DNA from: Candidatus Nitrospinota bacterium M3_3B_026
GTDB lineage: Bacteria > Nitrospinota_A > UBA7883 > JBPRGF01
Length of the DNA stretch: 64,000 nucleotides
Assembly: GCA_051418015.1 (NCBI GenBank)
Contig: JBPRGF010000014.1
Coordinates: forward strand, 58,101-122,100
Direction: 5' to 3'
Made by a program: the position numbers and the translations under genes. Under the pieces are notes generated by a model, which saw only the letters and a list, made by a program, of their open reading frames with translations, was not told where the DNA came from and made no database searches. Shown one piece after another: positions 7,774 to 62,921 of this stretch. Within the stretch, counting starts at the first letter, position 1; each line of letters starts with the position of its first letter.

Positions 7774-8988
7774 ATGAGGAGGACATTCCTATCGGTTCTG
7801 TCGGTCGTGGCGGTCGCCATGGCGGGAATCCTCGTAACGCCGGATGAAGGCTCGGCCCTGCCGAACTTCGCCCGGCAGACCGGGCAGCCCTGTTTCAGCT
7901 GCCATTTCCAGCACATTCCAAAACTTTCCGCGTACGGGCGGTCCTTCAAGATGGGCGCGTACACGGACACCTTCGTCGACATGATCGAGGGTGAGAACCT
8001 GTCCACCCCGGCCACGGCCCCCGTCGGGTTCGTGACCAAGCTGCGCTACGTCCAGACCACCGCCAAGGAAGAGCACGGCGAGAAGGCCGGCACCGAGCGC
8101 GGCGAGTGGCAGATTCCTGACGAGGCCGCTCTCTGGCTGGCCGGGCGCGTGTCCGAGAACATCGGCTACGCCATCGAGTTCCCGGAAGGCTGGGCCTCGG
8201 GCAAGGTCATCTTCAAGCTTCCGGTGGACGCCGTGAACGTGGGCCTTTCCGTGTACAGCACGGACGCTCTCGGGCCGGGCTTCGGCATGGAGATCTTCAA
8301 CACCGGCGTTCTGCGGTCCATCCGCATGTTTGAGTCCCGCAAGGAGACGATAGTCGCCCAGGGGATGGGTGTCGGAGCCGGGACGGCCACGGGTCTTACC
8401 CTCTACGCCGGCAGCGACATGTTCTTCGCGGGCGCCGGCCTGTGGGGCCCGCAGTTCGGCGGAGAGGCTCCCATCGACACGGGTTTCGACCTTTCCACCT
8501 GGTACCGCGCGGCCTTCACGCCGACCTTCGGCGATCATAACCTGATGATCGGCGTCTTCGGCACCGCGGGCGAGACCAAGTGCGTCGAGTGTCTCGGTGG
8601 CGACGGTAGCGAGGTGCTGTCCGCCAAGACGGAGTCCTTCGGTGTTGACGCTCAGCTTCAGAGCGTGTTGGGCAACGGCATGACCCTGGAGGTTCAGGGC
8701 ATGTACCTGACCGCTGGCAGCGACGACGCCAACTCCCTCTACACGGAGTCCAACGGCTTCAGCGGCGTCGCGGAGCTTGGCTTCAACCCGATGTTCGGCG
8801 TGGCCGTCGGTTACGCAAGCTACACCGACAAGAGCGGGTCCGAGGACGTGGACACCCAGGCCACGAGCGTCGCGGCTTACGCCAACCTCGCCCAGAACGT
8901 CACGCTGAGGCCGGAGTTCACCTCCTACAGCGGCGACGGAAGGAGCAACGACGACCAGTTCCTGCTTCTCCTGCTGGCTGGCTTCTAA
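7774..8988 (+). CDS. Outer-membrane monoheme cytochrome c fused to a beta-barrel (Cyc2-like candidate)
   Basis: AGGAGG-like RBS (taaggagg, 7758-7765) before ATG 7774. Signal peptide 'MRRTFLSVLSVVAVAMAG'. A single CxxCH ('QPCFSCHF') lies ~20 residues into the mature protein. The remaining ~370 aa are Gly/aromatic-rich alternating beta-strand-like sequence ending in a C-terminal Phe ('LLAGF'), the typical OMP terminus. Confidence 0.5.
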   Translation: MRRTFLSVLSVVAVAMAGILVTPDEGSALPNFARQTGQPCFSCHFQHIPKLSAYGRSFKMGAYTDTFVDMIEGENLSTPATAPVGFVTKLRYVQTTAKEEHGEKAGTERGEWQIPDEAALWLAGRVSENIGYAIEFPEGWASGKVIFKLPVDAVNVGLSVYSTDALGPGFGMEIFNTGVLRSIRMFESRKETIVAQGMGVGAGTATGLTLYAGSDMFFAGAGLWGPQFGGEAPIDTGFDLSTWYRAAFTPTFGDHNLMIGVFGTAGETKCVECLGGDGSEVLSAKTESFGVDAQLQSVLGNGMTLEVQGMYLTAGSDDANSLYTESNGFSGVAELGFNPMFGVAVGYASYTDKSGSEDVDTQATSVAAYANLAQNVTLRPEFTSYSGDGRSNDDQFLLLLLAGF

Positions 8989-9013
8989 GCTCCCGCCTTT
9001 CAAGGCAGATACT

Positions 9014-9048
9014 CCCCCGTCCTCTTTAAAGAGGGCGGGGGTTTTTTT
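9014..9048 (+). terminator. Rho-independent terminator after the Cyc2-like gene
   Basis: Hairpin CCCCCGTCCTC/GAGGGCGGGGG followed by TTTTTTT (9042-9048). Confidence 0.7.
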
Positions 9049-9074
9049 ATGCTTGCCGCGGCGGGCTCCTTTCC

Positions 9075-9270
9075 CGCGGTGTCCATTCTGAGCGCCAGCG
9101 AAGAATCCCGCAACGGACGTGAAACGGCGAGATCCTTCGGCCTCAGGATGACAATGGGGCGGCTCAGGGTGGATAAAATGGGAGCGCTCAGGGTGACAAA
9201 GTGAGGGGAGGTTCAGGGTGACACTATCTCTTCACAGTGTCATGCTGAACGAAGTGAAGCATCTCGCCCC
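9075..9270. repeat. Dispersed intergenic inverted-repeat element family, locus A (core GTCATnCTGAG / CTCAGGnTGAC)
   Basis: 'gtccattctgagcgccagcgaagaatcccgc', three spaced copies of '(c)tcaggGtgaca(a)', and 'gtcatgctgaacgaagtgaagcatctcgc'. The latter is near-identical to 18241-18269; related copies sit at 60327-60357 and 62730-62790. Confidence 0.6.
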
Positions 9271-9304
9271 GGGACAACAACGAAAACAGCTTCTCAGCAG
9301 CCCG

Positions 9305-11266
9305 TCAGGCCCTCGCGGCGCCGGACTCTTTCCAATCTACCAAAAAGATGTCGTAGCGGACGCCCTCCAGCCCCTTGATCTCGGCCCAGCCTATTTCCCG
9401 GAGAACGAACCTGGGGTCGTCCTTGATGGAGTTGTAGACAATGTATGAGACCAGCACGCGGTTCACCAGCGGGAAATCCACAGGGTCCACGTTCAGTTGC
9501 ATGAATGACTCCGGGCCGAGCCTCTCGATCCTCGAAGCGGCGTTCACCGGCACGCCGAACCGGTCGTTGTCATGCCCCACCCTGGTCTCTCCGAAGTCGA
9601 TCCCCACCCGGACGTTTATCCTGTTTTTCTCGTCCGCCCTCCGGTTGTAATCTTCCAGCTCCTTCAGTGTCTCCACGGCCGCGCTGACGGCGTCGGCGTT
9701 GCTCTCGAAAACGCCCATGAACCCGTCGCCCAAGCCCTTTTTGTACGCGAGGCCGTTGCGCGAGGCCTTTTCGCTGAAAATCTTGTCCAGCGAACTGAAC
9801 AGCTTGAAGAAATGGTATCCCCCGTAGACGTTCATTATCTCCGTGGAGCCTGCCACGTCCAGGAACAGGATCGACTCCGGCCGGGAGTCTTTATACGGCG
9901 AGGCGGGGATGGATGGCGCCTGGAGCGGCTTTGACGGGATCGAGGGTGGAGCGTCCCCGGCGGAGCTTGCGGCGGACACTTTTTCTATGAACTCGGCCAC
10001 TCTTTCGGCGCTCCCCCTGAGGGATTCGTCGGCGAGCTTGATGAAGGTCTCGTAGTCCTTGACGGCTTCCCCGGACAATCCCATGTCATACTTCGCCTTG
10101 CCCCTGTTGTGATAGGCCGGGGCGAAGCTGGGGTTGAGCCGTATGGCCTCGCTGTAGTCGGCGACGGCTTCCTTCTTGAGGCCTAAGTCGGACCTGGCGT
10201 TGCCGCGGTTGTTGTAGGCGGCGGCGTAGCTCGGGTCCAGTTGCGTGGCGGCGTCGTAGTCGGCTATGGCCTCTTCCTTCAATCCCATGTATGAGAGGGC
10301 GTTCCCCTTGTTGTAAAAGACCTGCGGCATGTTCGGCTTCAGCCTCAGGGCCTCCTCGTAGTCGGCGACGGCTTCCTTTTTGAGACCCAGGTCGGACTTG
10401 GCGTTGCCCCGGTTGTAATAGGCCGCGGCAAGATCCGGGTCCAGCTCTATGGCGCGGTCGTAGTCGGCTATGGCCTCTTCCTTGCGCCCCAGGGCGGATT
10501 TTATGTTTCCCCTGTTGTTGTACGCCAGGGCGTAATCCGGACCCAGCTCTATGGCGCGGTCGAAATCGGCTATGGCCTCCTCGGCCCTGCCGAGGTCGTA
10601 TTTAGCGTTCGCCCTGTTGAAAAAGGCCACGGCGTAACGGGGACTGAGTTCTATGGCCTGGTCGTAGTCGGCTATTGCCTCGTCTTTTCGCCCCAGCGAG
10701 TCCTTGGCGATGCCGCGGTTGTTGTACGCCTTGGCGAGGCCGGGGTCCAGGCGGATGGCCTGGTCGTAGTCGGCTATGGCCTCCTCCTTGCGCCCCAGGG
10801 CGGCCTTGGCGCTGCCGCGGTTGTTGTAGGCGGCGGCGTGGGAGGGGTTCAGGCGTACGGCCTGGTCGTAGTCGGCTATGGCCTCCTCCTTGCGCCCCAG
10901 GGCGGACTTGGCGTTGCCACGGTTGTTGTAGGCCACGGCGTAGTTCGGGTTCAGCGCGAGCGCCTGGTCGTAGTCGGCTATGGCCTCCTCCTTGCGCCCT
11001 AGGGCGGACTTGGCGTTGCCCCGGTTGTTGTAGGCGGCGGCGTAATCGGGGTTCAGCTCTATGGCGCGGTCGAAATCGGCGATGGCCTCCTCCCTGTGGC
11101 CCAGGGCGGCCTTGGCGCTGCCGCGGTTGTTGTAGGCGGCGGCGTGGGAGGGGTTCAGGCGTATCGCCTCGTCGAAATCGGCGATCGACTCCCCGGTCTG
11201 CTTGTTTTTATATTTTTCGACGCCTTTTTCGAAATATTGTTTCGCTTTTTCCGTCTCGTTTGACAT
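9305..11266 (-). CDS. TPR-repeat protein (about 12 x 34-aa repeats) with C-terminal class III adenylyl/guanylyl cyclase domain
   Basis: Repeated 'AIADYDQAIELNPDYAAAYNNRGNAKSALGRKEE' units. The C-terminal domain carries 'FLDVAGSTEI', 'GDGFMGVF', 'VRVGIDFGE' and 'GVPVNAASRIE' (cyclase homology domain). 653 aa. Confidence 0.88.
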   Translation of the reverse strand: MSNETEKAKQYFEKGVEKYKNKQTGESIADFDEAIRLNPSHAAAYNNRGSAKAALGHREEAIADFDRAIELNPDYAAAYNNRGNAKSALGRKEEAIADYDQALALNPNYAVAYNNRGNAKSALGRKEEAIADYDQAVRLNPSHAAAYNNRGSAKAALGRKEEAIADYDQAIRLDPGLAKAYNNRGIAKDSLGRKDEAIADYDQAIELSPRYAVAFFNRANAKYDLGRAEEAIADFDRAIELGPDYALAYNNRGNIKSALGRKEEAIADYDRAIELDPDLAAAYYNRGNAKSDLGLKKEAVADYEEALRLKPNMPQVFYNKGNALSYMGLKEEAIADYDAATQLDPSYAAAYNNRGNARSDLGLKKEAVADYSEAIRLNPSFAPAYHNRGKAKYDMGLSGEAVKDYETFIKLADESLRGSAERVAEFIEKVSAASSAGDAPPSIPSKPLQAPSIPASPYKDSRPESILFLDVAGSTEIMNVYGGYHFFKLFSSLDKIFSEKASRNGLAYKKGLGDGFMGVFESNADAVSAAVETLKELEDYNRRADEKNRINVRVGIDFGETRVGHDNDRFGVPVNAASRIERLGPESFMQLNVDPVDFPLVNRVLVSYIVYNSIKDDPRFVLREIGWAEIKGLEGVRYDIFLVDWKESGAARA

Positions 11267-17274: not shown

Positions 17275-18099
17275 ATGGAAGGCATGGAAAACCTCGTATG
17301 GATCGCCGCGGGCCTCGCCCTGATAGCGATGATAGCCACCAGGCTGAGGGAGCAGAGGCAGGAGTCGCGCCACAGGAGGGGGCTGTCACCCGCCGCGTCC
17401 AACCGGTTTCGCGGCGGCCACGACGGGATGTTCGACGCGCGGGTTATAGCCTTGGAGTTCGACGAATCCGGCCCGGTGATGTTCATAAACGGCAAGTTCA
17501 AAAACGGCGAGGAGCCTACGGACATCGGGCTGGTGACGGCGGAGGTGGAGCACGCCGCGGGGACGGAGACTTTTTTCCCGTTCGACGCCGACACGGGCGA
17601 GGAACCCGGCGAGCGCAGGCTGGGAGACCTTGTGAACCTTGTCGCGCCCGCCTCCTTCTCTCCCTTCGAGAGGGGGATGTTCCGCGCGCCCCTTTTCTCT
17701 CCGGACCGCGAGGAGCGCCTCGCCAGCGCCGTCGACCGGCTGGACAGCGCCGCCATGCGCATGGTGGAGAAGCTCGATCGGGAGTTTGACAGCTACTCTC
17801 TGGAGGGGGAGCCGCTGGCCCGGCTGGAGGAGGACTTCCGGCGTGATTTCGTGGTGAAGGAAATCGCCGATGAGATAGAACGCGAGCTTCTCTGGCGGCC
17901 GGGACGCTTTTCGATCATCGCGAAGTTCGTGTCCGGCGGCAATGACGTCGTGGACAAGATATCCCTGACGATCCATCTCGACCAGAGCAACGCCGAAAAG
18001 CTCAGGAAAAACGTGGACGCGATAATAACCAACGCCCTCCGCGCCGAGCTGGACCTGGAGCCTGCGCTCTACACCCCGGTGATATTCGAGAGAGAATAG
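17275..18099 (+). CDS. Hypothetical protein with N-terminal TM anchor
   Basis: 274-aa ORF with GC3-rich codon usage. N-terminal hydrophobic helix 'LVWIAAGLALIAMIA'. No recognised domain. Confidence 0.45.
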   Translation: MEGMENLVWIAAGLALIAMIATRLREQRQESRHRRGLSPAASNRFRGGHDGMFDARVIALEFDESGPVMFINGKFKNGEEPTDIGLVTAEVEHAAGTETFFPFDADTGEEPGERRLGDLVNLVAPASFSPFERGMFRAPLFSPDREERLASAVDRLDSAAMRMVEKLDREFDSYSLEGEPLARLEEDFRRDFVVKEIADEIERELLWRPGRFSIIAKFVSGGNDVVDKISLTIHLDQSNAEKLRKNVDAIITNALRAELDLEPALYTPVIFERE

Positions 18100-18119
18100 G
18101 CGGCGCGAAGACAGGCGGC

Positions 18120-18350
18120 GGGATCCTTCGCCCCGGGATTTTTCGGCTTCGCCTTAGAATGACAAGGGGGGCTCCGAGGATGGCGAAAGCTCATCGTGGC
18201 GCCACTCTGAGCGAAGAGCCTCGCAATGGACTCCGCTATGTCATGCTGAGCAAAGCGAAGCATCTCGCGCCGGATAAAACGATGAGATCCTTCATCTGCG
18301 GCTCAGGATGACAAAGGGGCGCCTCAGAAATGACAAAGGTGGGTCTCAGG
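18120..18350. repeat. Dispersed inverted-repeat element family, locus B
   Basis: 'gaatgacaaggggggctccgagga', 'gccactctgagcgaagagcctcgc', 'gtcatgctgagcaaagcgaagcatctcgc', 'ggctcaggatgacaaaggggcgcctcagaaatgacaaaggtgggtctcagg'. Sits between the convergent 17275 gene and lpxB. Confidence 0.6.
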
Positions 18351-44098: not shown

Positions 44099-44418
44099 AG
44101 GGCTTTTTTCTTTGGCCTGCCGTGACCTGCGCTTTTTTCCTGGCGGCGGGCTGCCGGACGGCGGACAGACCGGCCGCTTACCAGAAATGCGTTAAATGCC
44201 ACGGGGAACCGGGGGGCGGCGGGACGATGACGGCGCCGGACCTCGCCGAGACGGAGTACGACCTAGGGCAGTTCAAAAAACAGTTGCTGAGCGGTTCGGA
44301 TTGGGAAGGGAAACCGCCCGGGAAATGGAAATACCGGTGGAAAAAGATGCCTCCCCAGGTGGGTCTTTCCGAAAAACAGATCAAAGCCCTTTTCGAGTAC
44401 ATAAAATCCGCTAATTAG
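44095..44418 (+). CDS. Monoheme c-type cytochrome lipoprotein (paralog 1)
   Basis: GGAGG RBS plus GTG. Lipobox 'FLAAGC'. 'CVKCHG' heme site. Shared downstream 'KKMPPQ..LSEKQIKALFEYI' with the two paralogs. Confidence 0.8.
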   Translation: MKGFFLWPAVTCAFFLAAGCRTADRPAAYQKCVKCHGEPGGGGTMTAPDLAETEYDLGQFKKQLLSGSDWEGKPPGKWKYRWKKMPPQVGLSEKQIKALFEYIKSAN

Positions 44419-44611
44419 ACGGCGTTCCGCATCAGACTGGGTTTAATTTCTGTACCCGGTATTTTCTCTGGAATCGGTATTTACACGCGAGGGTTGTTTG
44501 TAATACTATTAGGCGGCTTTTTTCGCGGCTCCGCTTTCGCGGGCCCGCGAAAGAGGGGGGTAAGTCAAGGATGGGAACCGCAATGTTCAACAAAACGCTA
44601 GGAGGTCAATT

Positions 44612-44944
44612 ATGATGAGAGCGGTGATTCTCTCCCTGGTTTCCCTCGCCCTGCTGGCCGCCCCTTCTCTTGCGGGTGACGCGCCGAAGGCTTTCAGGAA
44701 GTGCAAGACCTGCCACGGTCCGATCGGAGCGGGCAAGGGCAAGCTTGGGCCCGACCTTATCAAGGACCGCTTGAATTTCGAGCAGTTCACCAAGCAGATC
44801 AAGAACGGCTCCAAGTGGGAAGGCAAGCCGCCCAAGATGGAAGGCTTCGAGAAGAAGAAGATGCCTCCCCAGAAAAAGCTTTCCGACGAGGACATCAAGG
44901 CTTTGTTTGACTATATCCAGGCCGCCCAGGCAGCCGCCAAGTAA
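44612..44944 (+). CDS. Monoheme c-type cytochrome (paralog 2, Sec signal)
   Basis: AGGAGG RBS. Signal peptide. 'CKTCHGP'. 'KKMPPQKKLSDEDIKALFDYI'. Confidence 0.85.
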   Translation: MMRAVILSLVSLALLAAPSLAGDAPKAFRKCKTCHGPIGAGKGKLGPDLIKDRLNFEQFTKQIKNGSKWEGKPPKMEGFEKKKMPPQKKLSDEDIKALFDYIQAAQAAAK

Positions 44945-44960
44945 CGACTCTCTTGGGAAA

Positions 44961-44997
44961 CCGCCGGATGGCCGCGAAGGCTCCGGCGGTTTTTTTT
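44961..44997 (+). terminator. Rho-independent terminator
   Basis: CCGCCGGA..TCCGGCGG hairpin plus T8. Confidence 0.72.
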
Positions 44998-45051
44998 GTC
45001 CACGCCCGCAATACACGGGCCCGGACCGGCAAAATTTTTCGGAAGTGACGA

Positions 45052-45080
45052 TTGCATGCCGGATTCGTTTATAATATGAT
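45052..45080 (+). promoter_or_regulatory. Candidate sigma-70 promoter TTGCAT-N17-TATGAT, followed by inverted repeat CCGGTGA-N8-TCACCGG
   Basis: Spacing and hexamers fit the consensus. The perfect 7-bp inverted repeat at 45094-45114 lies between the promoter and the RBS of cytochrome c paralog 3. Confidence 0.35.
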
Positions 45081-45181
45081 ATGTTCGCTTTTCCGGTGAG
45101 TTATTTTCACCGGATTCACCGCAGAGGGTATATCTGAGTAATATCCCGGAATTGTTCAACAAATAGTAGGAGGGGTAAGTT

Positions 45182-45502
45182 ATGATGAGAGCGATGTCCG
45201 TTTTTTTTATTTCCCTGGCCCTGCTGGCTGGCCCCGCCCTGGCCGGTGGCGCGCCGAAAGCTTTCAAGAAATGCAAGACCTGCCACGGCCCACTGGGAAA
45301 AAACAAGGGCAAGATAGGGCCTGACCTGGCCACGACCAAATACACCTTCGAGCAGTTCACCAACCAGGTGAAGAACGGCTCCAAGTGGGACGGCAAGCCG
45401 GCCAAGAGGGAAGGCTTCGAGAAGAAGAAGATGCCTCCCCAGAAGAAACTTTCCGACGAGGACATCAAGACTCTGTACGACTACGTGCAGTCCGCCAAGT
45501 AA
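45182..45502 (+). CDS. Monoheme c-type cytochrome (paralog 3)
   Basis: AGGAGG RBS. Signal peptide. 'CKTCHGP'. 'KKMPPQKKLSDEDIKTLYDYV'. About 70% identical to paralog 2. Confidence 0.85.
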   Translation: MMRAMSVFFISLALLAGPALAGGAPKAFKKCKTCHGPLGKNKGKIGPDLATTKYTFEQFTNQVKNGSKWDGKPAKREGFEKKKMPPQKKLSDEDIKTLYDYVQSAK

Positions 45503-55420: not shown

Positions 55421-55497
55421 CGGGGCGTAGCGCAGCCTGGTAGCGCATCTGCTTTGGGAGCAGAGGGCCGGAGGTTCAAATCCTCTCGCCCCGACCA
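55421..55497 (+). tRNA. tRNA-Pro (anticodon TGG)
   Basis: Cloverleaf with 7-bp acceptor CGGGGCG/CGCCCCG, anticodon stem TCTGC/GCAGA, loop TTTGGGA (anticodon TGG, G37), T-loop GGTTCAAAT, encoded CCA. Confidence 0.9.
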
Positions 55498-55527: not shown

Positions 55528-55603
<76 letters not shown>

Positions 55604-57981: not shown

Positions 57982-60171
57982 TCAGCCGGAAGCGGTTTTG
58001 CGGGATTTGCCACGCTTTTTCTCCTCCACTATCTCCCCGGCCAGAAACTGCGCCAGAAGAAGCGTCCGCTGGATGAGGCTTATCCTTTGTACCGCCTCCT
58101 GTGCGGTGTAGACGTCCCGGGCCACGGGGCCCGCGCCGCAGACCACGGAAGCGCCCTCCGGCGCAAGACCCGCCACAGATGGCCACACCGAAGACTCGTA
58201 GTCGAGCGGGATGTCCCAGCGCGATGCTATGCCTTTCAGCTTTCTGGCGAGGCGGAGGGTACCCTGTTTTTTTTGCATCGGCGGCCTGTCGGATACGACG
58301 GAAAGCTCCAGGCGCAGGCCGGTGTTGACAAGGATCGATCTGATCTTCTTCTCGGTCCTGTCGGCCGTCCTGACATCCGGGTAGGAGGCCAGGATCGAGA
58401 CCCATGCCTTGTGCGGCAGCATCATCGGAAAGCCGTCCACCCTGATGTCCACGGGGGAAACGGCAAGGCGCTCCTTGCGCGAGGAGATGGCGGAAAGCTT
58501 CTTCATCGTGGAAAATATCCAGGAAAGAGGCTCCGGCTCTTTGGAGAGTTTGCCGAGGGGCTGCGGCTTGCCCTCGACCAGGAGACGGTATCGGCGCTGC
58601 CCCCTGCGCTGGGTCACCAGCCGGCCCCCGGGATTGGCCGGGCGCAGAACAATCGTCCGGCCCGCGCGGGCCATGGCGCCGGATATCGTCCCGGCGCTGT
58701 ACCTGCAGCCGCTCCCTTCGTCGGTGTAGAAAAGAACGCCAAGGGGAACGCGGCGCAGGAGACGATGCGCCCGGAGCGACCTTAAGGCGTACTCCATCAT
58801 GACCAGCGGCGCGCGGGAGCAGCCCACGCCCTCGCCGTAGAGCCATTCCGGATCAACGCGGAACCTTTCCGCGGGGGTGGAAGGGTCCAGGGGGACGTCC
58901 AGGTGGGCCACAAGCAGGATTCCTCCCTCGAAGCCCTTCTTTGTCTCCCAGGCCCACGTGGCCCTTTTCTCGCTAAGTTCCCTGACGGGCGTCATGCCCA
59001 TCTCATCGAAAAAATCGCCGAGCCGTTTCACCACCGCCTCGATCCCCACCGGGTCCGCCGTCCTGCTCGACACCCCCACCCACCGGCCAAGGCTTTTTTC
59101 TATCTGGTCCCGCCTTTGCGTGAGGTAGCCAAGGACAAGGCTCTCCGGCTCCTTTTTCTCCACCGCGACGGGGGTGGGGCTGGGCGTGCCGAAATACCTG
59201 GCGCTGGCCACCTCGATGAGCCGTTTTACGAGGGCGTCGTAGTCCAGCCCGTCGTGCTCCGCCGCGGCGGTGTAAGATCCGTGCTCGCCCAGGCTGGGGA
59301 GACTGTTCACCTCCAGTATGTAAATGTTCCCCGCGGCGTCGATGCGCATGTCCACCCTGGCGCAGTCGTAACAGCCGAGGGCGGAGAAGGCGCGCAACGC
59401 CAGCTCTTTCGCCTCCGAGGCGGTCTGGGGGCTTATCCTGGCGGGGCATACGGGGTGTATCTCCCTGCCGGACCTTTTGGTCTTGTCCTCGTATGTATAG
59501 ATGGGGGGGCCGCTGGAGCCGAAGTCTATCTCCGCCGGGGTCAGGGCCTCCGGCGGGTCGTTGCCTATGAGCCCCACGTTTATCTCCTTGCCCTCGATGA
59601 ACCTCTCCACGAGGGCGGGCTGGTGGAACTCCCTGAATATGTAGTCCGCGGCCTCCCTTAGCTCTTCTTCATTTTCCACTATGGTAAGCCCCATGGAGAC
59701 GGCCTCGTTCTTTGCTTTCACTATCAGGGGATATTCAAGCTCCGGCTGCTCGAAACCTGGGCCGTAGAGCACGGCGAAATCCGGTGTGGGCAGGCCGCTC
59801 TGGCGGAAGATCATCTTCGCCACAACTTTGTCGAGGGCCAGCGAGTGGGCCAGGGGGCCGGAGCCGACGTAGGGGATCCCCACCATCTCCAGGATGCTTG
59901 GCACGTGTGTGTACCGGGCCTGGCCCTGGATGCCGTACGACAGGTTGAAGACCATGCCCGGCCGCTCCCCCTTAAGCGCGCTGGGCATGAAGCTTTGCAG
60001 CTTGTCTATCAGGTCCTTGTCGCCCTCGAGGGCCACCGTCTTGTATCCCCCCTTTTTCAGGGCGTCCATTATGCGCCGGATCGTCCTGAGGCCGTAGCGC
60101 TCCCTGTTCGGCGTTCCGAACAGGTTTATCACGTTCCTGCTCTCCCGGTTATAAACGACGGCTATCTTCAT
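57982..60171 (-). CDS. D-Ala-D-Ala-ligase-like ATP-grasp enzyme fused to an M20-peptidase-like domain (possibly degenerate)
   Basis: N-terminal 320 aa: 'GIPYVGSGPLAHSLALDKVVAK', 'KAKNEAVSMGLTIVENEEEL', 'VERFIEGKEINVGLIGN', 'CARVDMRIDAAGNIYILEVNSLPS' (Ddl family). C-terminal 400 aa: 'LLVAHLDVPLD', 'YTDEGSG' M20-like metal-site remnants. The canonical GxxDDKG Asp is absent. Confidence 0.75.
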   Translation of the reverse strand: MKIAVVYNRESRNVINLFGTPNRERYGLRTIRRIMDALKKGGYKTVALEGDKDLIDKLQSFMPSALKGERPGMVFNLSYGIQGQARYTHVPSILEMVGIPYVGSGPLAHSLALDKVVAKMIFRQSGLPTPDFAVLYGPGFEQPELEYPLIVKAKNEAVSMGLTIVENEEELREAADYIFREFHQPALVERFIEGKEINVGLIGNDPPEALTPAEIDFGSSGPPIYTYEDKTKRSGREIHPVCPARISPQTASEAKELALRAFSALGCYDCARVDMRIDAAGNIYILEVNSLPSLGEHGSYTAAAEHDGLDYDALVKRLIEVASARYFGTPSPTPVAVEKKEPESLVLGYLTQRRDQIEKSLGRWVGVSSRTADPVGIEAVVKRLGDFFDEMGMTPVRELSEKRATWAWETKKGFEGGILLVAHLDVPLDPSTPAERFRVDPEWLYGEGVGCSRAPLVMMEYALRSLRAHRLLRRVPLGVLFYTDEGSGCRYSAGTISGAMARAGRTIVLRPANPGGRLVTQRRGQRRYRLLVEGKPQPLGKLSKEPEPLSWIFSTMKKLSAISSRKERLAVSPVDIRVDGFPMMLPHKAWVSILASYPDVRTADRTEKKIRSILVNTGLRLELSVVSDRPPMQKKQGTLRLARKLKGIASRWDIPLDYESSVWPSVAGLAPEGASVVCGAGPVARDVYTAQEAVQRISLIQRTLLLAQFLAGEIVEEKKRGKSRKTASG

Positions 60172-60309
60172 CGCTCCCTCATCGGTTTTGAGGCCGCGGG
60201 GCCTGGAGCGCCCCTCCGGGATATTCTAACCGCCAAACATGGCGGGGAAAACGAAAGAAAACGCGGGGCGGGGGGCGGAGGCTCAAGGCGCTGACATGGC
60301 CGGCCGGTC

Positions 60310-60420
60310 TGTCTCAGTCCCACGTTGTCATTCTGAGGCGAAGGCGAAGAATCCCGCCACCTCCGGCATGGCCGCGCGGGATACTGCGCTGGCGCTCAGC
60401 ATGACATTATCGAAGCGTCA
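60310..60420. repeat. Dispersed inverted-repeat element family, locus C
   Basis: 'gtcattctgaggcgaaggcgaagaatcccgc' and the inverted copy 'gcgctcagcatgacatt'. Intergenic between the ATP-grasp gene start and the hemL stop. Confidence 0.55.
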
Positions 60421-60446
60421 CGCTCGATTCGATGATGTCGCTCTTC

Positions 60447-61727
60447 TCAAAGGCCTTTCAGGGATTCTTCCGCGGCCTCGAGTGTTTTGTCTATGTCGCC
60501 TTCCGTGTGGGCGAGCGACATGAACCCGGCCTCGAACTGGGACGGGGCGAGGTAGACTCCCCGCTCCAGCATGGCGCGGAAGAACTTTCCGAACTTTTCG
60601 GTGTCGGAGGTCTTCGCCGTCTTGTAGTCATAGACCTCCGGCTCGCCGGTGAAGAAGGTGATGAACATCGCCCCGGCGCGGTTGTGTACGGATGGTGTTT
60701 TCAGCCTGTCAGTGATCTCCTTCAACCCTTCGCCGAGCTTTGCGGAAAGCTCCTCCAGCCTCTCGTAGACACCGTCTTCCTTCAGGATTTTAAGCGTCTC
60801 GATCCCCGCCGCCATGGCCAACGGGTTGCCGGAGAGTGTCCCCGCCTGGTAGACGGGCCCCGACGGGGCGACTTTTTCCATGATCTCCCGCCTGCCCCCG
60901 TAGGCGCCGACGGGCAGCCCGCCGCCTATGACCTTGCCCAGCGTCGTAAGGTCCGGCGTGACGCCGTAGCGCTCCTGGGCGCCCCCGTAGGCCACGCGGA
61001 AACCGGTCATCACCTCGTCGAAGATGAGCACCACGCCATACCTGTCACAAAGCTTGCGCAGTCCCTCCAAGTAGCCCGGCTTGGGCGGTATACAACCCAT
61101 GTTGCCGACTATGGGCTCGAGTATCACGCAGGCGATGTTGTCCCCCTCGGCGGAAAGCTCCCGCTCCACCGCGTCAAGGTCGTTGAAGGGGAGCGAGCGG
61201 GTGAGGTTGGCCAGCGCCGCGGGGACGCCGGGCGAGTTCGGCAGACCGAGCGTCTCCACCCCCGAGCCGGCCTGTACAAGCAGAGAGTCCGGACAGCCGT
61301 GATAGCATCCGTCGAACTTTATTATCCCGTCGCGCCCCGTGAATCCGCGCGCCAGGCGGATGGCGCTCATGGTGGCCTCCGTGCCGGAGTTTACCATCCT
61401 GACCATCTCGATCGACGGAACGGCGTCCACTACCATCCGGGCCATCTCCACCTCCAGCTCCGTCGGCGCGCCGAAGGACGATCCGTTCTCCAGGGCTTTT
61501 CTGACCGCCTCGGTGACCCGCGGGTTGGCGTGGCCCGCGATCATCGGGCCCCAGGAGCCGACGTAGTCGATGTATTCGTTCCCGTCGACATCGAATATTT
61601 TCGAGCCGGCGGCCTTTTTTATGAAAGGCGGCTCGGCGCCCACGGCGCTGAAGGCCCGGACGGGGCTGTTCACTCCGCCGGGGATTATCTTTTTGGCTCT
61701 CTCGAAAAGCTCGGAAGACTCGCTCAT
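60447..61727 (-). CDS. hemL: Glutamate-1-semialdehyde 2,1-aminomutase
   Basis: '[13 protein letters not shown]', '[15 protein letters not shown]', '[10 protein letters not shown]', '[17 protein letters not shown]' (PLP-Lys). Start at MSESSE inside the longer ORF. Confidence 0.95.
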
Positions 61728-62590: not shown

Positions 62591-62729
62591 CTTTCGCTTT
62601 CTCCGTGTCAGCCGTTTCAGTTTGAAGTGAGTAACTATCGCATATCAGGAAAACTCGTTCAAGATGGCCTTCCGCCAGCGGGCAGCGGGTTGATTTGAAA
62701 AAATCAAGGCCCTTCACTTCACGGGTGTT

Positions 62730-62800
62730 TCGTTCAGGACGGCAAAGCGTGACAGCGCCACCCGCTCGCGCCGTCCTGAGCCGCCAGGCGAAGAGCCTTG
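62730..62800. repeat. Dispersed inverted-repeat element family, locus D (divergent copy)
   Basis: 'ttcaggacggcaaagcg' .. 'cgtcctgagccgccaggcgaagagcc' form a 9-bp-arm hairpin (TCAGGACGG/CCGTCCTGA) and resemble the U2/U1 units of loci A-C. Confidence 0.4.
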
Positions 62801-62921
62801 CCTTTTGGGGAAAAATCAGACTGACCCACCGCCAGTGGCTTTTGTTGAAAGCTTTGCCGTAAATGGGCTAATATACAAAATTCTTTTGTTAAACCGTTGT
62901 CTTGGTTTTAAGTCTGGTAGG

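Follow-up and report, generated by a model that had tools for sequence, protein, structure and literature searches.

What are the short inverted repeats that recur between the genes of Candidatus Nitrospinota bacterium M3_3B_026, and which enzyme could have spread them? The window analyzed here is a stretch of 64,000 nucleotides from this genome (contig JBPRGF010000014.1, positions 58,101 to 122,100), and it carries the repeat at four intergenic loci, called A to D in order of position. We estimate a probability of about 90% that the copies in the window are non-autonomous mobile elements. They would belong to the CGTC/TGTC superfamily of repetitive extragenic palindromic (REP) sequences, which are short hairpins with an unpaired tag. 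In other bacteria, the same units bracket the gene of a small GIY-YIG nuclease. By analogy with the pairing of REP and RAYT, this protein is probably the cognate enzyme of the units.

The sequence-only reading of this DNA had proposed a dispersed, "REP/MITE-like" family at the four loci. The motif GTCATNCTGAG (at most one mismatch) has 14 matches in the window, compared with 2.5 ± 1.7 expected. None of 100 dinucleotide-preserving shuffles reached this number. The clear copies are restricted to 9082-9266, 18120-18345, and 60327-60405. We also scanned the window, with filters off, using a covariance model (R1) trained solely on 59 distinct copies from other organisms. R1 reports seven significant units (E 2.5e-11 to 4e-4) and four degenerate units (E 0.7-3.8). 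In the whole window, no significant match lies beyond the four loci. The motif enrichment and the recovery of units only there by a foreign-built model confirm the family as proposed. The fourth locus had been described as more divergent, and this is correct: it consists of a degenerate pair with the tags inside and R1 E-values of about 1. Several half-units are also present at these loci. The window units carry the TGTC tag. Both orientations are found at each of the four loci, which speaks against the repeat being primarily a strand-specific RNA gene.

The anatomy of the unit was defined on 164 copies among the matches listed in viral contigs, and then on 387 distinct copies from viral and genome contigs. 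The consensus is (Y)T-GTC-AT-N-CTGA-G-[apex]-C-GAAG-N'-AT-C-(T)(C). It begins with an unpaired 5' tag, (T/C)GTC. The GTC is fixed; at position -1, 79% of the 387 units have T and 16% have C. By inspection, pairing between the tag and the tail is impossible. The stem has nine positions. In 59 distinct foreign units (ungapped 25-nt alignment), it opens with A-U at pair 12-32 (55 of 59), followed by U-A at pair 13-31 (58 of 59).

Compensatory changes affect three stem pairs. Pair 14-30 is CG in 20 of these units, UA in 19, GC in 11, AU in 4, and UG in 2. Pair 19-25 is mostly GC (49), with AU (7) and GU (3). Likewise, pair 20-24 is mostly CG (42), with UG (4), UA (2), and GC (1). Overall, covariation scores 0.224; shuffled alignments give 0.078 ± 0.010 (0 of 500 reach the observed value), and slid registers 0.066 at most. 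Considering all 387 units, N and N' are complementary in 373 (T-A 168, C-G 159, G-C 35, A-T 11). In the stem, this free pair is followed by C-G and U-A pairs.

Two stem positions present invariant mismatches, in which 5'-GA-3' faces 5'-GA-3' within CTGAG/CGAAG. From established nucleic-acid chemistry, they are predicted to adopt the form of tandem sheared G·A pairs. The sequence GCGAAGC is a very stable mini-hairpin. The commonest apex of the units is C-GNA-G, a loop of 3 nt, or of 5 nt without counting the closing pair. Longer apical inserts, present in 118 of the 387 units, form sub-stems (for example, GGGCCGCAGCCC or GTCAGCATAGCTGAC). These apex stems span 5-16 nt, and their length changes are compensated. 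The 3' tail is short and unpaired: C, then T (76%), then C (54%) in the 387 units. Alphaproteobacterial and Aeromonas units beside GIY-YIG genes have the tail CCA. We also compared the fold with two known RNA motifs, by inspection. The hammerhead ribozyme is similar in CUGA...GAA, but it has a 7-nt CUGANGA core and a stem I that the units lack. The kink-turn was rejected because the tandem G·A pairs lack its 3-nt bulge.

Paired units are arranged with the tags outside (59), with the tags inside (13), or in tandem (18), and their spacers are mostly of 10-100 nt. The partners of a pair often represent different subtypes; they are identical in 12 of 57. It had been proposed that hairpins form between inverted copies. 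The pairs can fold further, at -17 to -22 kcal/mol (z -1.2 to -3.5): B3/B4 at -19.7 kcal/mol (z -3.5) and C1/C2 at -22.4 kcal/mol (z -2.4). However, the covariation within units means that each single unit is already a hairpin. The second repeat type, U2, of the sequence-only reading is a real sequence, but not a separate unit. It corresponds to the reverse complement of the 5' half (flank and head) of further units. The long match reported between loci A and B is also strong. It amounts to 26 of 29 nt between 9238-9266 and 18239-18267, rather than 27 of 29 at 18241-18269, and two of its three differences form one compensatory pair.

Comparison with relatives had been suggested as a check for polymorphism, and polymorphism was found in the lpxB and hemL regions. 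In one relative (L322, LpxB 94% identical), the same convergent gene pair is separated by a gap of 62 nt with one unit, GTCATTCCGAGGCGCCAGCCGAAGAATC. The gap in the window is 246 nt long and contains a repeat cluster. In a more distant relative (L323, 70% identical), the gap has 47 nt and no units. After hemL, a relative with 78% identity has a different inverted pair, and another has none. The presence and absence of units between relatives therefore indicate that the family is mobile. These differences, the inverted pairs, and the fit with a published REP superfamily support the first description as REP-like.

The gap after lpxB also preserves two half-units. In the head-only fragment and in L322 alike, GTCAT begins 11 nt past the lpxB TGA. 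The ATC of the tail-only fragment ends 22 nt before the stop codon of the neighboring gene, compared with 23 nt in L322. Between the two fragments, there are about 187 nt of further units. As the simplest reading of these alignments, an ancestral single unit might have been split at its apex by incoming units. A MAFFT alignment that pairs the L322 unit with B1 was rejected, because it misaligns the lpxB stop codon and makes the equal distances coincidental. A repeat copy had been said to overlap this stop codon. The sequence in question, GCCTGAG, is the end of the gene itself and is found in relatives too; the first repeat fragment begins 2 nt past the stop codon.

Half-units are common beyond this locus. 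Among exact heads, 125 of 464 have no tail, and 89 of 429 tails have no head. This wide distribution of head-only and tail-only fragments therefore marks the apex as a hot spot of breakage and rejoining. Sixty-six of the head-only copies are arranged in tandem arrays, on the tag side of a full unit, with a period of about 19-27 nt. Each member consists of a flank of 8-12 nt plus GTCATNCTGAG and ends at the hairpin apex. Such arrays are observed in L126 (3762-3890), in L328 (1190-1260 and 1810-2040), and in the window (9163-9229). In Planktothrix, the arrays flank a pair symmetrically. The array type of locus A recurs in many other genomes.

The family is not limited to Nitrospinota. The exact 25-mer GTCATNCTGAGCGNAGCGAAGNATC, with 22 fixed bases, has at least 120 matches in one-genome-per-species contigs, and simple arithmetic gives a chance expectation below 0.1 in 596 Gb. 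This exact form is present in more than 20 bacterial phyla. Among the matches listed, the hosts include Nitrospirota, Nitrospinota, Chloroflexota, Acidobacteriota, Planctomycetota, Verrucomicrobiota, Bacteroidota, Ignavibacteria, and Gemmatimonadota. They also include Alphaproteobacteria, Desulfovibrio, Bdellovibrionales, Clostridia (Firmicutes), Fibrobacter, Omnitrophota, Saccharibacteria, Gracilibacteria, and Abditibacteria. Plasmids of Planktothrix, Calothrix, Oscillatoria, Hymenobacter, and Granulicella carry it as well.

The genes next to the units are ordinary housekeeping genes. The 148 neighbors comprise 177 Pfam families, each observed at most twice, and no transposase is among their Pfam matches. 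Clustering of the open reading frames (ORFs) within 400 nt of 390 units returned only phage structural genes, from viral contigs, and no shared partner. In many IMG/VR viral contigs (L002-L121), units lie between phage structural genes (terminase, portal, tail). Phages may thus be carriers of the repeats between hosts. In cultured phage genomes, we found only weak partial matches to the unit.

REP sequences were divided into GTAG- and CGTC-tagged superfamilies by Di Nocera, De Gregorio & Rocco in 2013 (BMC Genomics 14:522; PMC3733652). The CGTC class includes dRS3 of Neisseria and RPE-4/RPE-6 of Rickettsia (PMC3733652). Neisseria, Rickettsia, and Wolbachia are known from the literature as rich in repeats. 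Its definition asks for an unpaired terminal CGTC (TGTC and CCTC are allowed), a stem of 8-9 bp that almost invariably opens with A-T and T-A, a loop of 4-5 nt, and a short unpaired 3' tail with the consensus CCA (PMC3733652). Most of these elements are "HH" dimers with the tags outside and spacers of 20-100 bp, located between convergent or unidirectional genes. The survey found them in five phyla, mainly in Alphaproteobacteria, with S. meliloti and A. lipoferum among the hosts. It reported no dedicated transposase for the class and no RAYT gene flanked by CGTC units (PMC3733652).

The unit described here agrees with this class in its tag, the A-T/T-A opening, about 8-9 stem positions, the tags-outside pairs, and the location at gene ends. 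Nevertheless, there are differences. The stem includes the two non-Watson-Crick G·A positions. The loop has 3 nt (5 nt without counting the closing pair) or gives way to a longer sub-stem, compared with 4-5 nt in the class. A short unpaired tail is present, with the sequence C(T/C)C where the class has CCA. The unit's host here belongs to Nitrospinota, and the same 25-mer is found in more than 20 phyla instead of five. Finally, GIY-YIG genes are bracketed by units, whereas no enzyme was published for the class.

These genes came from a motif scan of the element-centered loci. Two small GIY-YIG genes appeared in about 240 such loci, and both are flanked by units. Rarity seen from the element side is to be expected, because there should be many non-coding copies per gene. 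To look from the gene side, we took metagenomic relatives of the two seed proteins; 509 were confirmed, and the best 80 were kept. A canonical unit lies within 200 nt of the gene in 33 of these 80 loci. Of 63 genes, 50 have GTCAT at no more than 160 nt on the upstream side, 49 have ATGAC downstream, and 38 have both. Control windows taken 1.2 kb away give 11 of 76. A strict structural detector placed flanking units in 34 and 36 of 74, over a background of 0.24 units/kb.

By inspection, nearly all sampled loci are bracketed by "GTCAT-hairpin-ATC" units, and the stem type varies with the gene lineage. The types are CTGAG/CGAAG, CCGAG/CGAGG, GCCGAC/GGAGGC, and minimal forms such as GTCATGCTGTAAGCATC. 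The units to the left and to the right of one gene have 5.5 of 7 stem bases in common, compared with 3.49 ± 0.17 when the partners are shuffled (maximum 4.30 over 1000 shuffles). The repeats also leave traces in protein databases. ORFs that run across them give GIY-YIG proteins false N- or C-terminal extensions. Peptides translated from units (VILSEAKNL, CHPE.., LRFAQDD, LRMT) occur in 24 of 79 family representatives with miscalled extensions of at least 20 aa, and in 0 of 131 protein cores.

Cultured genomes show the same arrangement. Unit-bracketed GIY-YIG genes are present in Rhizobium sp. CIAT894, S. meliloti pSymB, Azospirillum lipoferum 4B, and Shinella. They are also found in Aeromonas caviae, Spirosoma, and Planktothrix agardhii p1. 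In the cultured bacterial genomes, the flanking units are textbook CGTC-AT...AT-CCA repeats. The module of gene and repeats occupies diverse places: between gltA and lpxB in S. meliloti (L331); between sufB and sufC, within the operon, in Azospirillum (L332); and between an MmeI-type restriction-modification gene and the DISARM gene drmA in Planktothrix (L328). One locus was recovered from ten metagenome samples (L336-L345) with an identical GIY-YIG protein and the same context. The number of flanking modules varies among them; the downstream gap measures 175, 257, or 312 nt, and one sample has a tandem duplication of the gene and its flank. Natural populations are therefore polymorphic for these arrays.

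The associated protein has about 95 aa and matches Pfam PF01541 (E 3.8e-18 and 4.3e-16 for the two seeds). The catalytic residues Y7, Y18, G20, R28, H32, E65, and N84 are invariant in 35 sequences. The family is large. At E ≤ 1e-10, 7965 of 8000 scored 90%-identity clusters belong to it, and 13,900 representatives at 50% identity have E ≤ 1e-3. The closest solved sequences are the UPF0213 (COG2827) proteins 1ZG2 and 1YWL. To our knowledge, UPF0213 proteins have no known function. The structure model (pLDDT 94) matches 1ZG2 best, followed by the Slx1 nuclease domain (rmsd 2.1-2.4 Å over about 70 columns), At-HIGLE, and the N-domain of UvrC. With UPF0213, Slx1, and HIGLE, the protein shares the GIY-YIG fold with all catalytic residues. 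Unlike Slx1, which needs Slx4 and a RING domain, it is a bare domain. Since its nearest folds are Slx1, HIGLE, and UvrC, its characterized relatives cut DNA structures and not long specific sequences. Cleavage of the repeat hairpin would be its putative activity.

How could such a protein spread the units? In many genomes, the GIY-YIG gene lies within an inverted pair or an array of units, just as RAYT genes lie among REPs. The structure-specific nuclease would recognize the tagged hairpin when it is extruded from single-stranded or supercoiled DNA. After the hairpin is cut, repair or copying would spread the units, preferentially into existing units. A more detailed version is tentative: the enzyme might read the tag and the first two pairs of the extruded hairpin and cut near the apex, and the subsequent repair or copying might add units. 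The window copies would be passengers that settled at gene 3' ends, which tolerate insertion. If the units affect transcripts at all, this would be secondary.

Several observations weigh against this account. Nearest-neighbor folding of single units yields the expected hairpin but with weak energies, -2 to -4 kcal/mol (z above -1), so the single-unit hairpin rests on the covariation. We found no target-site duplication or defined element ends, and no simple insertion model predicts the tandem head-only arrays. The search for a GIY-YIG gene, which covered this window of the genome, found none; the window copies are therefore non-autonomous. Approximately 20-40% of the sampled GIY-YIG genes have no recognizable flanking units. 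In one lineage, the gene lies between units of the same orientation, and there the variation in array copy number can be explained by ordinary recombination. The metagenome sample is biased to the seed subfamily, because both seed proteins were found beside units. The bias is reduced, but not removed, by plasmid matches at 37-49% identity and by representatives of the 50% clusters. The link between gene and unit is correlative; the gene might travel with the repeat pairs as a passenger or exploit them as a homing parasite.

GIY-YIG domains are those of classic homing endonucleases. The units could then be mobile REPs in which the GIY-YIG gene is a free-standing parasite of inverted pairs and not their mobilizer, with the two units serving as homology arms or landing pad and owing their spread to a different enzyme or to the replication and repair of the host. 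The gene does occupy the spacer position of a pair, its frequency in element-centered loci is low, and ordinary recombination can produce the copy-number variation of the arrays. It also shares with I-TevI and the Seg proteins the catalytic domain and a selfish genomic setting. However, the protein is only the catalytic domain, lacking both the linker and the DNA-binding domain of homing enzymes. Its gene has inverted hairpin repeats on its two sides, whereas those of homing enzymes are inserted in introns or among phage genes. The NCBIfam model of group-I-intron endonucleases gives it 18.9 bits, far short of the cutoff of 56. The nearest characterized folds are structure-specific nucleases, no other candidate enzyme recurs beside the units, and the stem type follows the gene. 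We regard this explanation as unlikely. An alternative that denies mobility is that the units are primarily functional RNA hairpins (3'-end stabilizers, terminators, or small RNAs) selected at gene ends. All four window loci sit just past gene 3' ends, most tagged REPs are located between convergent or unidirectional genes (PMC3733652), and the covariation includes G·U pairs on the unit strand. But neither strand is favored at any locus, and no T-run follows the units, the true terminator at 9003-9050 being separate. Close relatives differ by presence or absence and by half-units, and unrelated genes adjoin the same sequence in phage contigs and across more than 20 phyla. No Rfam family matches. 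A primary role as RNA is thus improbable, more so than the homing parasite.

Two known mobile systems have an even smaller part in the balance. The units resemble classical REPs mobilized by RAYT, an IS200/IS605-type tyrosine transposase (Nunvar 2010; Bertels & Rainey 2011). Both have short tagged hairpins, inverted doublets, clusters, and hundreds of non-coding copies per rare nuclease gene, which is itself flanked by repeats. Yet the tag is (T/C)GTC in all units and not GTAG, and the candidate enzyme has a GIY-YIG domain instead of the HUH tyrosine transposase. REP/RAYT pairs are lineage-specific, whereas this unit is common to many phyla. Neither the neighboring ORF clusters nor the Pfam matches of the 148 neighboring genes include a Y1 transposase, and the 2013 survey points the same way (PMC3733652). 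Mobilization by RAYT is accordingly very improbable. The same degree of doubt applies to the inverted pairs being MITEs, that is, deletion derivatives of a DDE insertion sequence with the units as terminal inverted repeats. Tags-outside pairs with spacers of 10-100 nt look like MITEs and, as in Correia/NEMIS, they are small non-coding intergenic inverted-repeat elements. However, no direct target duplication was found around 57 pairs, whose flanks are inverted (T...A), and no transposase or DDE parent is enclosed or adjacent. Single units are common, each arm is an independent hairpin with its own internal covariation, and pair partners often differ. Compared with these explanations, tagged REPs served by a GIY-YIG nuclease agree better with the observations.

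The literature offered no precedent. We found no paper joining "GIY-YIG" and "repetitive extragenic palindromic", although subscription journals were outside the search and a prior description is possible. Nor did we find a paper linking GIY-YIG with REP, RAYT, MITE, COG2827, or UPF0213. The later papers that cite the 2013 work on CGTC repeats add no enzyme. A full-text search for the repeat sequence returned only primers and vectors.

The units and fragments of the window are collected in the table. D0 and D1 start with CGTC-CTGAG, without the AT-N part of the stem, and contain a 9-bp inverted repeat (62734-62742 and 62771-62779). The gene hemL had been placed beside locus B. This is not the case, since hemL (stop codon at 60447) adjoins locus C, where the pair C1/C2 lies 34 nt past that stop codon and upstream of a ddl-like gene.

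Table. Repeat units and fragments in the window, with their R1 E-values
Feature	Position	Strand	Remarks
Full unit A1	9073..9115	+	E 3e-4; 1-nt insertion in the tag (TGTCCAT); tags-outside inverted pair with A2
Full unit A2	9123..9160	-	E 2.5e-7; GTCATCCTGAGGCCGAAGGATC, short apex
Three head-only fragments (5' flank + GTCAYCCTGAG/A)	9163..9229	-	Each ends at the hairpin apex; tandem, on the tag side of A2
Full unit A5	9231..9271	+	E 2.5e-11; GTCATGCTGAACGAAGTGAAGCATC; stands alone
Tail-only fragment	18116..18134	-	GGCGAAGGATCCCGCCGCC; interpreted as the 3' half of a former single unit
Degenerate unit B1	18129..18171	-	GTCATTCTAAGGCGAAGCCGAAAAATC; E 3.8; 1-mismatch motif match
Degenerate unit B2	18193..18228	+	GCCACTCTGAGCGAAGAGCCTCGC; E 1.9; without tag
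Full unit B3	18232..18272	+	E 5.9e-11; tags-outside inverted pair with B4
Full unit B4	18278..18320	-	E 1e-6
Head-only fragment	18321..18345	-	CCCACCTTTGTCATTTCTGAGGCGCC; interpreted as the 5' half of that former single unit
Full unit C1	60319..60361	+	E 1.8e-7; tags-outside inverted pair with C2
Full unit C2	60372..60413	-	E 4e-4; N/N' is a G·T wobble
Degenerate divergent unit D0	62700..62751	-	GCCGTC-CTGAACGA...GTGAAGGGCC; E 0.69, alone not significant
Degenerate divergent unit D1	62765..62805	+	CGTC-CTGAGCCGCCAGGCGAAGAGCC; E 1.2; tags-inside pair with D0

At the gathering threshold, Rfam 15 gives no match on the repeats; its sole matches in the window are two tRNA genes (55421-55494, plus strand, and 55531-55603, minus strand), which are divergent and 36 nt apart. 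An E-value scan of 9000-9320 matched only the intrinsic terminator at 9003-9050 (plus strand), and nothing on the repeats. This terminator has a GC-rich stem (CCCCCGCCCTC/GAGGGCGGGGG) and a T7 run, and it follows a plus-strand gene ending at 8988. It is separate from the repeats and explains all weak Rfam matches nearby.

Several ORFs across the repeat clusters are almost certainly spurious: 9049-9204, 9218-9448, 18159-18311, and 60239-60523 on the plus strand, and 18069-18263 and 60168-60323 on the minus strand. The neighboring ORF at 9305-11266 encodes a TPR protein of 653 aa. Within it, nine tandem repeats of 102 nt (10091-11206, minus strand; 61-71% identity) correspond to 34-residue TPR units. 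The gene at 57982-60171 (minus strand), whose start is about 150 nt from the pair C1/C2, encodes a protein of 729 aa. Only its first 325 residues or so match D-Ala-D-Ala ligase. Other direct repeats, of 118-153 nt with 80-89% identity and a spacing of 514-570 nt, occupy 44263-45499. They are unrelated to the hairpin family, and their layout suggests genes or domains duplicated in tandem.

Few unexplained features of bacterial genomes are as abundant as short palindromic repeats. The CGTC REPs are one of the two published superfamilies, and they have been without a known enzyme since 2013. The small GIY-YIG genes bracketed by units are a new, testable, and apparently unreported candidate for this missing enzyme. 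The repeats also have a practical effect: in annotation, spurious ORFs and falsely extended N-termini arise from them, and metagenome assemblies break at them. We consider it an evenly balanced question whether TGTC/CGTC REPs and UPF0213-like GIY-YIG proteins constitute a second REP-nuclease system. It would be independent of RAYT, extend across phyla, have its hot spot at the apex, and drive the spread and maintenance of the repeats. If so, a whole class of repeats, including dRS3 of Neisseria and the RPEs of Rickettsia, would gain a mechanism. Likewise, a function would be found for UPF0213-type proteins and for a very large family of 95-aa nucleases now called "hypothetical", which counts about 13,900 clusters at 50% identity. 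Biochemistry would gain a minimal structure-specific nuclease with a 25-nt DNA hairpin as substrate, and possibly tools.

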